IMG/VR virus record: IMGVR_UViG_3300024346_000009
Length of the DNA stretch: 64,000 bases
Reading direction: 5' to 3' (one strand)
DNA from: a virus
Of the stretch, positions 5,505 to 53,987 are shown one piece after another. The notes under the pieces were generated by a model that had not been told where the DNA came from, did not search any database, and worked only from the letters and a program-made list of their open reading frames with translations. Each line of letters starts with the position of its first letter. Positions within the stretch are counted from its first letter, which is position 1. The position numbers and the translations under genes are program-made.

Positions 5505-5581
5505 GGGCTGATAGCTTAGTGTCCTAAAGCAGCGGCCTCATAAGCCGTTGATCGTAGGTTAGAATCCTACTCGGTCTACCA
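5505..5581 (+). tRNA. tRNA-CAU (Ile2/Met type)
   Basis: Cloverleaf, anticodon arm GCGGC-CTCATAA-GCCGT, ends ACCA; T-loop TTAGAAT atypical. Confidence 0.85.
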
Positions 5582-7110: not shown

Positions 7111-7197
7111 TAAGAAGATTTAAAGTTAATACTTTTTTAACTGGTAGTAAACGTAAATTTATTCCAGAAATTTTACCTGGAACTAATACACCAATAA

Positions 7198-7269
7198 CGC
7201 GGGGTAGCTCAGTAGTAGAGCGCTGGACTCATAATCCAGATGTCGGAGGTGCGAACCCTTCCCCCGCAT
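7198..7269 (+). tRNA. tRNA-Met(CAU), initiator-like, atypical
   Basis: CGCGGGG/CCCCGCA acceptor with C1:A72 mismatch; CTGGA-CTCATAA-TCCAG; no encoded CCA. Confidence 0.75.
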
Positions 7270-7303
7270 CCCTTAATCCTAACATTGTACTCGGCTACAA
7301 TTA

Positions 7304-50113: not shown

Positions 50114-51004
50114 ATGGCAATGGATTTTAATACAATGAAAACCGCTCGTGGTGGTTTCGATAGCCTGATGAAGGAAGTCGAGAAGATTGCAACACCACAA
50201 AATCAAGACAACGCAAAAGATGATCGCTTCTGGCAACCAGAGGTAGATAAGGCCGGTAACGGCTATGCAGTCATCCGCTTTCTTCCGCCTCCTAAGGGTG
50301 AAGATCTTCCATGGGTTCGTGTTTGGAATCATGGATTTCAAGGTCCTACAGGAAAGTGGTACATCGAGAACTCACTCACAACATTAAGTAAACCTGATCC
50401 TGTATCAGAACTTAATACCGAGTTGTGGAATACAGGTCTTGAGTCTAACAAGGATATTGTACGCAAACAAAAGCGTCGATTGACTTATGTTTCAAACATC
50501 TACGTCGTTAAAGACCCTGCACATCCTGAGAACGAAGGTAAAGTATTTCTTTACAAGTTCGGTAAGAAGATCTTTGATAAGATTAAAGATGTGATGCAGC
50601 CTCAGTACGAAGATGAAACCCCTATCAACCCCTTCGACTTCTGGAAGGGCGCTAACTTCAAGTTGAAGATTCGTAATCTTGAAGGATATCGTAACTACGA
50701 TAAGTCTGAGTTTGATAGTCTTTCTGTTCTATCTGAAGATGATGACGCACTTCAAACTACCTGGGGTAAGCAACATTCTTTAGTTGAGTTTCTTGACCCT
50801 AAGAACTTTAAGTCGTATGATGAACTTAAATCTAAACTTCAAATGGTCTTGACTGCAACAGGTTCAGCACCTAGAGCAGAAGAGTTATCATTGGAAAGTA
50901 TGCCCCGACCTGTACCAGCAAAAGCAGCTTCGAAGAAGGAAGTTGATTTTGACGATGCAGAGGGTTCCCTATCGTACTTCGCCAAGCTGGCGAATGATGA
51001 TTAA
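50114..51004 (+). CDS. 32: single-stranded DNA-binding protein gp32
   Basis: DDRFW, GNG.AVIRFLP, WYIEN, YFAKLA tail. Confidence 0.97.
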   Translation: MAMDFNTMKTARGGFDSLMKEVEKIATPQNQDNAKDDRFWQPEVDKAGNGYAVIRFLPPPKGEDLPWVRVWNHGFQGPTGKWYIENSLTTLSKPDPVSELNTELWNTGLESNKDIVRKQKRRLTYVSNIYVVKDPAHPENEGKVFLYKFGKKIFDKIKDVMQPQYEDETPINPFDFWKGANFKLKIRNLEGYRNYDKSEFDSLSVLSEDDDALQTTWGKQHSLVEFLDPKNFKSYDELKSKLQMVLTATGSAPRAEELSLESMPRPVPAKAASKKEVDFDDAEGSLSYFAKLANDD

Positions 51005-51119
51005 TTAGGTAGTCTTAGCCTCCTCCAGGGCACTCGTTACCTTAGTAACCCAGGCCCTGGTCCGGTGACGAGCTAGTTAAATTTTGTGTTTAACTTTTAT
51101 TTAAATTTTGGAGTTTTTT

Positions 51120-51332
51120 ATGAAGACAATTATCGCAATTATTACTACCCTGTTCGCCTTGAGTTCTTTTGCTGCTGAGCCAGCTAAGAAAGAAGAAGCA
51201 AAGCCTGCTGCTAAAGCTGCCGCCGCTCCTGCTGCGCCAGCCGCTAAAGCTGCTCCTGCCGCGGCTCCTGCTGCACCAGCAGCACCAGCTGCCGCTAAGA
51301 AAGACGAAAAGAAGCCTGAAGCAAAAAAGTAA
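51120..51332 (+). CDS. secreted Ala/Pro/Lys-rich disordered protein (candidate -1 frameshift extension to 51436)
   Basis: Signal peptide ..SSFA; PAA repeats; ends A_AAA_AAG TAA. Confidence 0.8.
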   Translation: MKTIIAIITTLFALSSFAAEPAKKEEAKPAAKAAAAPAAPAAKAAPAAAPAAPAAPAAAKKDEKKPEAKK

Positions 51333-51434
51333 AGCGGCCTTGCAAAGCTGGGCAAACTGCGGCTGACGGCTGTAGAGTTGTCAAGAAGGCCGTGAAGAAA
51401 CCAGCTAAGAAGTCTACGAAAGTAGATAAGAAGT

Positions 51435-51462
51435 AAAAAAAGGGACTTTCGGGTCCCTTTTT
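51435..51462. terminator. bidirectional intrinsic terminator
   Basis: A-run, GGGAC-TTTCGG-GTCCC, T-run, between convergent genes. Confidence 0.88.
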
Positions 51463-51464
51463 CT

Positions 51465-53987
51465 TTAGTATACCGCTATCTTATTTGAGTACCTATCGAG
51501 CGCAGATCCTGTATATTCCGGTCGTGGTGTAGGCTTAGATGGCATAAACTTTGTAGTATTATTACTACTAACGTTATTAGATACAACGGTATTATTAGCA
51601 CCACCCTTAGATGCATCTCTTTCCATATCGGCGTTTTCGGTAGAAGTTTTAGCAACATCTTTTCCGGTTAGAATAGGGGAACCTTTACCAACATTACCCT
51701 CAACATCTAGGGTTGATGGGGCAAGCGCTTGAGCTCTTGCTTCTTTTATCTCTGTTAATTTCTTTCTAGCACCTTCAACATCACCTTTTTTATTAAGTTC
51801 TTGAAGTTGATTATATTCCTGTTTAGTTACTTCAGTGTCATATTCTGCACTATCACCACCCGTACCGCTCATCTCACTAGATACTTTATAGGTATCTTTA
51901 CCAAATAGACCACCAGAAATTCTCTGGCCAAGCATGCTTCCGTAATTAGCTTCGGTCTTGTTGATTTGTTTACCTTCAACTTTACCTTCTACCACTTTCT
52001 CATCAGATGATGTACCTAAAAAGCTGCCTGATTCTTTACCCTTTGCAGTAAACAAACCACCAAGGAATGTACTACCGAGTACAGACTTTTGTGCTGTGAC
52101 CCCTTCTTTATTACTAGCTGTTGAGGTAGTTGCCTCTAACCCAGGTCCTCGAGATATTGATTTATCGCTAGTAGCCACTTCACCTGTACTACTTACCATT
52201 TGATCAGCCATGGCAACACCCTTTGCCTGATCGTTTAAACCTATACCGCTGTTATAAACACCCTTAACCTTATCACCAATACCACCGAAGAAGTCTCCAG
52301 CTGCATTAATAGCTTTGCCGCCGTATTCCCCAACAACCTTACCTGCTTTAGATCCAGCAAATGCTCCTAGGGCTCCGCCTGCTATACCACCGATAGCTGT
52401 ACCAACACCTGGTACTATTGAACCAATTGTAGCACCGAGGGAGGCACCAGCAATAGCTCCGGCTGCCATACCAGTACCTTCACCTATTGCGCCACTCTTT
52501 TCAACAGTAGCTGTATTACCTATTTCTTTTCTTGCAGCTGCAGCTTCTTCTGGCTTCATTTCACCAGAGTCAAACTTAGCCTGAACCTCTTCCATTTTAG
52601 CTTGCTTACTATCTTCGGCTGCTGTATATCCTTCGTATGCAGTATATGCACCTAGGCCAACTGCTGCTGCTGCACCCAGTACCTTACCTGTATTACTAGT
52701 TGCAAACTTAGCCAGCTTACCGCCCATACTTGCTACCTTACCAGCACCTCCCTTTTTGCCCACCAAATCCATTGCACCTGAAGCTAAGTCACCTACAAGA
52801 GAACCTTTCTCATCCTCTTCTTCTTTCTTCGCCGATGGAGCACCCTTTTGATCGGTAATTTCAGCTGGTGTTTTAGGTGCTAAAGCATCTCGTATTTCTT
52901 TAAGCGTTGTTAGTTGCTCTTTTGTAGTCTCAAGCATCTGCTTAGATAACTCAAGATCACTCTTAGCAGCATCAGCAAGGGCTTCACCTGATGATGTAAC
53001 ATTATCACCTTCTGGGTTAGCAGCCTCTGGTGATTTCTCTGCGGGACTTGATACCTTACCTTCCCGTTCTTTTTTCTTATCCTCTGGTGGCTCCTCGTAC
53101 CCAATTAAATGATCTCTTATCCTGCCAGGGGTCGCTTTTACCTCGTCCTTAAACGTTGCAAAGAAGCCTCTATTATCCGTCTGTTCTTCATCATTTTTTT
53201 CTTTAGGTTCTACCCCACCTGTAATCCCTGCTACACTACTTCTTTCTCTACGTGCTCTTTTAATAGATGTATTTCTACCTTCAGAAGGTCCCTGATCATC
53301 ACCTAAATTACCACCCAAAGCTTCAGCTGTTGCTCCACCAGGTCTAGTTGATGTAACGCTGGTTATTAAATTTAATTTATTATCTTTTCTAGCCCGTTCA
53401 CCCTGCCCAGATAAGGTATCTCTGGCAGTTTCAAAATCTAAAAAGCCACCATCTTTAGATGTCTTGCCTGAGACCTTGCTCTCAATATCTCTACCACTGG
53501 TATTTCTATATTGAGCCGCCTCCTTGTCGTACTCAACACTACCTTCAGTTAATTTTCTTACTAATGAAATCTCTTTTAATTGTTCATCTTGTAACTTATT
53601 AGTGTTTATCCCTATAGCACCCATGGTAGCAACCAGGTGACCACTATCAATAAACTTACCTACATCTGACCCAACATTTTGTACTGCAGCTTTTACGCCT
53701 GTAATAACTTCCTTAAGCCCCTCTAATACCGTAGTTATCCTAGATAATGTATCATTTGCAGTGTCTAGTTGATCTTGAACCTCTATTACATCATCGCTGA
53801 CATCATGTAACCCATCTCTTAAAGAATCTCTTACAGATGAAGTTTCATCTTTTAAGTCACTTAGACTTTCATTGGTTTTATCAATACCTTTGGTAGTTTC
53901 TTTTTGTGCTAAAATCCCACCACCAGTTTGCTCCTTGAGTTTATCAAGGAACGCTTTAAAGCTAGGATCTGCTGATGGAGATTGCAT
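51465..53987 (-). CDS. tail tape measure / gp29-like protein
   Basis: 840 aa coiled coil with Gly/Ala-rich hydrophobic block, Asn-rich C-terminus; downstream of gp26/gp51. Confidence 0.65.
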   Translation of the reverse strand: MQSPSADPSFKAFLDKLKEQTGGGILAQKETTKGIDKTNESLSDLKDETSSVRDSLRDGLHDVSDDVIEVQDQLDTANDTLSRITTVLEGLKEVITGVKAAVQNVGSDVGKFIDSGHLVATMGAIGINTNKLQDEQLKEISLVRKLTEGSVEYDKEAAQYRNTSGRDIESKVSGKTSKDGGFLDFETARDTLSGQGERARKDNKLNLITSVTSTRPGGATAEALGGNLGDDQGPSEGRNTSIKRARRERSSVAGITGGVEPKEKNDEEQTDNRGFFATFKDEVKATPGRIRDHLIGYEEPPEDKKKEREGKVSSPAEKSPEAANPEGDNVTSSGEALADAAKSDLELSKQMLETTKEQLTTLKEIRDALAPKTPAEITDQKGAPSAKKEEEDEKGSLVGDLASGAMDLVGKKGGAGKVASMGGKLAKFATSNTGKVLGAAAAVGLGAYTAYEGYTAAEDSKQAKMEEVQAKFDSGEMKPEEAAAARKEIGNTATVEKSGAIGEGTGMAAGAIAGASLGATIGSIVPGVGTAIGGIAGGALGAFAGSKAGKVVGEYGGKAINAAGDFFGGIGDKVKGVYNSGIGLNDQAKGVAMADQMVSSTGEVATSDKSISRGPGLEATTSTASNKEGVTAQKSVLGSTFLGGLFTAKGKESGSFLGTSSDEKVVEGKVEGKQINKTEANYGSMLGQRISGGLFGKDTYKVSSEMSGTGGDSAEYDTEVTKQEYNQLQELNKKGDVEGARKKLTEIKEARAQALAPSTLDVEGNVGKGSPILTGKDVAKTSTENADMERDASKGGANNTVVSNNVSSNNTTKFMPSKPTPRPEYTGSALDRYSNKIAVY

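Follow-up and report, generated by a model that had tools for sequence, protein, structure and literature searches.

A small gene of an uncultured freshwater T4-like phage very probably ends in a programmed -1 ribosomal frameshift cassette, by which a predicted Sec-exported protein would be made in a short and a long form. The phage is represented by a single IMG/VR virus record (IMGVR_UViG_3300024346_000009; 159,688 bp, estimated to be 96% complete, 39% GC), and the window refers here to the whole stretch of 64,000 nucleotides of this record that was analysed. The earlier note had read in it a gene end GCA AAA AAG TAA, a tail in the -1 frame and a terminator flush after this tail, all of which we found in place (Table 1). 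Its central claim, namely that a -1 shift at A_AAA_AAG adds a basic tail with two Cys residues to an exported low-complexity protein, giving two isoforms, receives strong comparative support from the sequences of related phages.

Table 1. Features of the small gene and its surroundings, with the associated loci in other sequences. Positions refer to the window unless another sequence is named.
Feature	Position	Strand	Remarks
ORF for gp32	50114-51004		56% identity to cyanomyovirus gp32
Structured RNA (5'UTR element)	51025-51072		between gp32 and the small gene
Shine-Dalgarno GGAG	51110-51113	+	6 nt before ATG; read from the sequence; kept in relatives
0-frame ORF, short isoform	51120-51332	+	70 aa; signal peptide and Ala/Pro/Lys-rich linker, ends AKK-stop
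Predicted Sec signal peptide	51120-51173	+	18 aa; Lys2, 14-residue hydrophobic core, S-F-A before the cut
Slippery heptamer A_AAA_AAG	51323-51329	+	in phase with the 0 frame
-1 extension, tail of long isoform	51329-51436	+	35 codons and stop (51434-51436)
0-frame stop TAA	51330-51332	+	directly 3' of heptamer; invariant in all frameshift-type relatives
Candidate stimulatory stem-loop	51334-51393	+	outer stem 51334-51341/51386-51393 and inner hairpin
Cys-loop module Pro-Cys-x9-Cys	51338-51373	+	PCKAGQTAADGC
Bidirectional intrinsic terminator	51437-51462		shared with the convergent gene; abuts the tail stop
Convergent gene	51465-53987	-	840 aa
tRNA genes	5505-5581, 7197-7272; G000 C1 60116-61268
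Receptor loci	L037 5233-7740; L038 4788-7250; L062		proteins P0013-P0042
Distant homologue	L007 2000-2200		Cys-x25-Cys segment in frame

Taken alone, the window may show no more than a chance arrangement: AAAAAAG occurs 59 times on both strands of the 160-kb genome, and the probability of a 36-codon open frame at this base composition is roughly 10% by our own estimate. It is thus conservation across relatives that makes the case. Relatives were collected by tblastn with the 0-frame protein, by searching IMG/VR and JGI metagenomes with degenerate DNA patterns that describe the Cys loop, and later by profile match. Together, these searches yielded about 28 further contigs, drawn from about 20 independent assemblies of lake metagenomes, with 20 distinct variants of a 97-nt segment; one additional relative (L061) brings the number of distinct relatives to 21. 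All 21 share the heptamer, the TAA and the -1 tail, and none carries the tail in frame 0. In every frameshift-type relative, the spacing between GCA AAA AAG TAA and the loop is constant, and the tail ends at a stop just ahead of the terminator, a hairpin equivalent to which is found 3' of the small gene in all relatives. Across relatives, the linker ranges from 58 to 72 aa and the tail from 28 to 36 aa, all differences being due to frame-preserving indels. In addition, a scan with the 5'UTR motif, which is independent of gene type, returned 23 loci downstream of gp32, nine of which are of the frameshift type, with the identical signal in 9/9.

The heptamer is frozen at synonymous sites. The Ala codon preceding it is GCA in 20/20 variants, as compared with 69 of the 480 Ala codons (14%) elsewhere in these genes, and the Lys-Lys dicodon is AAA AAG in 20/20 cases at the site vs 1/51 in the remaining 0-frame body. 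The earlier description of the site as dnaX-type holds for the heptamer and the downstream stem; by contrast, a conserved upstream Shine-Dalgarno-like stimulator of the dnaX kind was not found, the upstream sequence differing between lineages. One other locus (L003) ends with the identical GCA AAA AAG TAA and has a -1 frame of merely four codons.

Substitutions in the tail follow the -1 frame. Variable columns at -1-frame codon positions 1, 2 and 3 number 5, 5 and 18 of 24 each, and the additional codon types are synonymous in 23 cases and non-synonymous in 9 in this frame, vs 7/27 and 5/27 for the two alternative frames. Most relatives were retrieved with a pattern requiring the loop motif, so that the apparent synonymous signal inside the motif is inflated; outside this search-forced motif, the variable columns are 4, 5 and 10 of 13. 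Of the 16 invariant columns in the phage module alignment, 10 fall within the Cys-loop module, and the Cys loop with the basic tail is the only well-conserved part of the protein. Before the loop, the -1 frame holds no ATG, GTG or TTG (apart from an ATG in L061) and no Shine-Dalgarno for independent initiation. Together with the orthologues and the stem described below, these patterns mark the tail as a genuine part of a protein, to which recoding, most probably -1 ribosomal frameshifting, is the only route in this gene.

Sister phages provide a second line of evidence, as they carry, in the matching slot and behind the matching 5'UTR, a gene in which the signal peptide, directly followed by the Cys loop, and a long Lys/Glu/Pro/Ala tail are all in frame 0 (L039, L040, L042, L043, L048-L053, L055 and L057). 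The window tail and the L039 in-frame orthologue share 20/27 identical residues (BLASTP, E 3e-12). A word-indexed search of longer proteins with a 46-residue junction peptide returned nothing, which is weak evidence since an exhaustive profile search later found orthologues: a profile of the phage module had 12 matches among 1.84 billion representative proteins. Several of the matches are small proteins which combine a signal peptide, a basic linker, the Cys loop and a basic tail in a single frame, as predicted for the long isoform. All the loci fetched (L058, L059, L063, L064 and L066) lie directly after gp32 and before a convergent gene. Their in-frame junction, KVKKPCK, matches the predicted shift product KKVKRPCK, which places the shift at the heptamer. 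The earlier note proposed to check whether the extension always follows the heptamer in the -1 frame, and took homologues with it in frame 0 as a sign of a homopolymer assembly error. It does follow the heptamer in this way in all close relatives, but more distant orthologues carry the module in frame 0. These in-frame orthologues are distinct alleles lacking the A-run, and they speak for a translated tail rather than an assembly error. The Cys loop is missing altogether in one relative (L046). We suggest that the frameshift allele could derive from an ...AAG GTA AAG... ancestor through the loss of one G, with rescue by the shifty heptamer.

The stem and inner hairpin proposed in the earlier note coincide with the minimum-free-energy fold of the window sequence (-26.6 kcal/mol; z = -2.85 vs shuffles). 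In the core stem (alignment columns 26-31 with 76-81), five of the six pairs form in 20/20 variants and the sixth in 18/20. Paired cells reach 90.7%, vs 22-51% with the partner slid, for sequences that are related and stem arms that lie within constrained codons. Covariation is thin, with one clear compensatory pair, a G-C to A-U double change seen in three sequences and probably reflecting a single event; several wobble-compatible third-position changes also keep inner pairs. As a control, equivalent 72-nt segments were folded for frameshift alleles and for in-frame orthologues encoding the homologous peptide. The 18 distinct frameshift segments have a mean minimum free energy of -24.5 kcal/mol (sd 2.2) and form an outer stem of 7-10 pairs in 18/18 cases, beginning 3-6 nt past the heptamer, whereas the 15 distinct in-frame segments average -16.0 kcal/mol (sd 1.5), with at most 5-6 pairs, in 8/15. 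The stem thus goes with the need to shift, since it is strong in frameshift alleles and weaker where the homologous peptide is encoded in frame. On this in silico evidence, it is a candidate 3' stimulatory RNA structure.

Other accounts of the locus have to be weighed against ribosomal frameshifting. RNA polymerase might add one A within the A6 run, so that some mRNAs would encode the long isoform in frame. Such transcriptional slippage would yield an identical protein product, and comparative data therefore cannot separate the two mechanisms; the six-A run, moreover, is located exactly at the junction. Yet this run has never been lengthened in any of the 21 variants, and efficient transcriptional slippage in bacteria generally needs about 8-9 or more A/T. 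As the exact X_XXY_YYZ phase, the terminal G and the stem specific to frameshift alleles are all features of ribosomal frameshifting, we consider slippage by the polymerase unlikely.

We regard it as very improbable that the tail is unexpressed, whether through an assembly (homopolymer) error or through an inactivating 1-nt deletion that would have left the Cys-loop region as a decaying remnant. In-frame orthologues do exist, and by our own inference the allele is derivable from an ...AAG GTA... ancestor by one-G loss, as this account would have it. The presence of identical A6-G-TAA with a -1 tail in about 20 independent assemblies nevertheless indicates that the tail is translated and is not an assembly error. 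Nor would a decaying remnant be expected to keep its -1 frame open with third-position periodicity across deep lineages, to change in length (28-36 aa) always in frame, or to lie behind a heptamer frozen at synonymous sites. Even less credit can be given to the idea that positions 51333-51436 act only as RNA, as an untranslated 3'UTR structure or a small RNA ahead of the terminator: the stable, conserved stem-loop adjoining the terminator would suit it, but substitutions show a three-base periodicity, protein-level homology extends to in-frame orthologues whose DNA loses the stem, and no Rfam family reaches threshold (nothing came near a gathering score). Stop-codon readthrough, +1 shifting and independent initiation of the tail were rejected on frame and sequence grounds.

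According to the preferred reading, a programmed -1 ribosomal frameshift, ribosomes would translate the signal peptide and then the Ala/Pro/Lys linker. At A_AAA_AAG, two tRNA-Lys would slip back by one base, aided by the downstream stem-loop; shifted ribosomes would then read GUA (Val) and 34 further codons, while unshifted ones would terminate at the adjacent UAA. Two exported isoforms would result, the short one being a 52-residue mature linker peptide and the long one adding the Pro-Cys-x9-Cys loop, whose Cys pair presumably forms a disulfide once in the periplasm, followed by a Lys-rich tail. We infer from sequence the ribosomal nature of the shift and its efficiency, as well as the export of the products and the disulfide bond.

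With a stimulator to help it, A_AAA_AAG ranks in the top three of -1 motifs for efficiency in E. coli; without one, it supports only about 0.3% shifting (PMC4066793, PMC5009743). The shiftiness of this heptamer depends on the tRNA-Lys of the host, and bacteria with a single tRNA-Lys make up only about half of the total (PMC5009743). The nine tRNA genes of the phage (Cys, Asp, Leu, Glu, Gly, His, Arg and two Met) include none for tRNA-Lys, so that the shiftiness of the host tRNA-Lys on AAG is assumed here.

The small protein is predicted to be exported by the Sec pathway and cleaved by signal peptidase I. The n-h-c layout of its signal peptide is kept in all alleles despite differing sequences; by inspection, small residues occupy positions -3 and -1, and no lipobox is seen. 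As modelled by AlphaFold, an in-frame orthologue has an N-terminal helix (residues 2-13) and, at the Cys loop, a short hairpin-like element of modest confidence (pLDDT about 75), this loop being the sole semi-ordered part of an otherwise disordered chain. A second Cys pair (Cys-x8-Cys) is present in the 0-frame linker of three relatives (L011, L016 and L036). Neither isoform, nor any orthologue, matches a Pfam, NCBIfam or PHROG family. The likeness to Asr-type chaperones or to LPS/peptidoglycan binders suggested in the earlier note found no backing, as no Pfam or NCBIfam match appeared at E values up to 1. Full-text literature searches found no description of the gene or of the shift site. These genes constitute a new, unannotated family of small, putatively exported Cys-loop proteins, encoded beside gene 32 in abundant lake T4-like phages.

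The small gene is located between gp32 and the convergent gene. In a blastn comparison of the region with cultured phage genomes, only low-complexity matches were obtained and no close cultured relative was found. The convergent gene encodes a Gly/Ala/Ser-rich product that includes one long hydrophobic run of Gly and Ala; for the orthologues in L059 and L066, Pfam gives no match, and gp51- and gp26-like baseplate genes follow the convergent gene. In the structured RNA that precedes the small gene, the first stem, read by eye, covaries clearly: its arms are CCAGGGC/GCCCTGG in the window, CCTGGA/TCCAGG in L002 and L039, CCGAGA/TCTCGG in L011 and CCAGGA/TCCTGG in L013. This 5'UTR element is common to frameshift, in-frame and loop-less alleles (it is also seen in L046), is absent from L058 and L059, where the small gene abuts gp32, and has no Rfam match.

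The Cys loop PCKAGQTAADGC is identical to a loop found in a rare subfamily of TonB-dependent receptors. Among about 185,000 bacterial and archaeal genomes searched, no more than three species carry the loop motif; all are high-GC gammaproteobacterial MAGs (66-67% GC vs 38-39% in the phage), and the motif is part of a TonB-dependent receptor in all three. The disulfide-type loop conserved in this receptor subfamily reads Asn-Pro-Cys-x-x-Gly-Gln-Thr-x-Ala-Asp-Gly-Cys, and its variants run parallel to those of the phages (A/P/E at position 4, A/E at position 8). In the AlphaFold model of the receptor, the barrel has pLDDT values of 70-88 and the loop, which is placed between strands 3 and 4 of the barrel, less than 50; by standard receptor topology, it is predicted to be extracellular loop L2. 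A PDB sequence search with the receptor returned plug-domain matches only, and no solved homologue of the loop. We roughly estimate the expectation of an exact 12-residue match in that database at about 1e-3 or less, so that a real relationship between phage and receptor loops, through shared origin or mimicry, is likely. Only these 12 residues are shared: Plug and barrel domains are recognised in the L037 ORF, whereas the phage proteins have no Pfam match. The phage protein itself was also considered as a TonB-dependent receptor and rejected, as it lacks the plug and 22-strand barrel.

The locus also appears to be subject to exchange. When 24 loci are placed on a gp32 tree, the two allele types, frameshift and in-frame, are mixed among backbones that hardly differ, and well-supported branches force at least three allele changes. 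This alternation points to repeated replacement of the small-gene cassette between conserved flanks. The deepest gp32 lineages in the sample likewise include the frameshift allele. One rather doubtful possibility is that the long isoform acts as a secreted mimic of receptor loop L2, with its dose set by frameshifting, serving as a decoy or competitor for whatever binds this loop, with frameshift and in-frame alleles swapped among near-identical phages in an arms race. If so, the binder could be a tail protein of a rival phage, a bacteriocin or a partner protein.

The cassette resembles several known frameshift systems without duplicating any of them. Like tau/gamma of E. coli dnaX, it combines A_AAA_AAG with a stem-loop a few nucleotides downstream, and one gene would give two products in a set ratio. 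In dnaX, however, shifted ribosomes soon meet a stop, so that the product is shorter, and an upstream Shine-Dalgarno-like stimulator assists the shift, whereas in the phage gene the adjacent stop is bypassed and the product would be longer. T7 gene 10A/10B and lambda G/GT likewise rely on a -1 slip near the 0-frame stop, producing a minor isoform with a C-terminal module, but these are capsid and tail-assembly proteins and use other heptamers; here, a 12-residue Cys loop and a basic tail would be added to a small signal-peptide protein encoded in a replication-gene neighbourhood. The orfAB genes of IS911/IS3 also use A_AAA_AAG and a downstream structure to make a fusion protein, which in their case is the transposase of a mobile element encoded by long overlapping ORFs, while the overlap in the phage gene is limited to the heptamer.

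Although the recoding trick is known, the example, in terms of both gene and protein family, is most likely new, and comparison among relatives supports it well. To our knowledge, few -1 sites outside tail-chaperone, capsid and transposase genes come with evidence so clear. The locus supplies natural controls, with in-frame orthologues in the same slot, a stem present only where the shift is needed and a plausible one-base origin. Gene callers miss this case, as the conserved half of the protein is left uncalled. As a working guess, the protein may be an envelope-acting accessory factor with the Cys loop as its active part, and the receptor loop to which it is identical gives a clue to function that can be tested.
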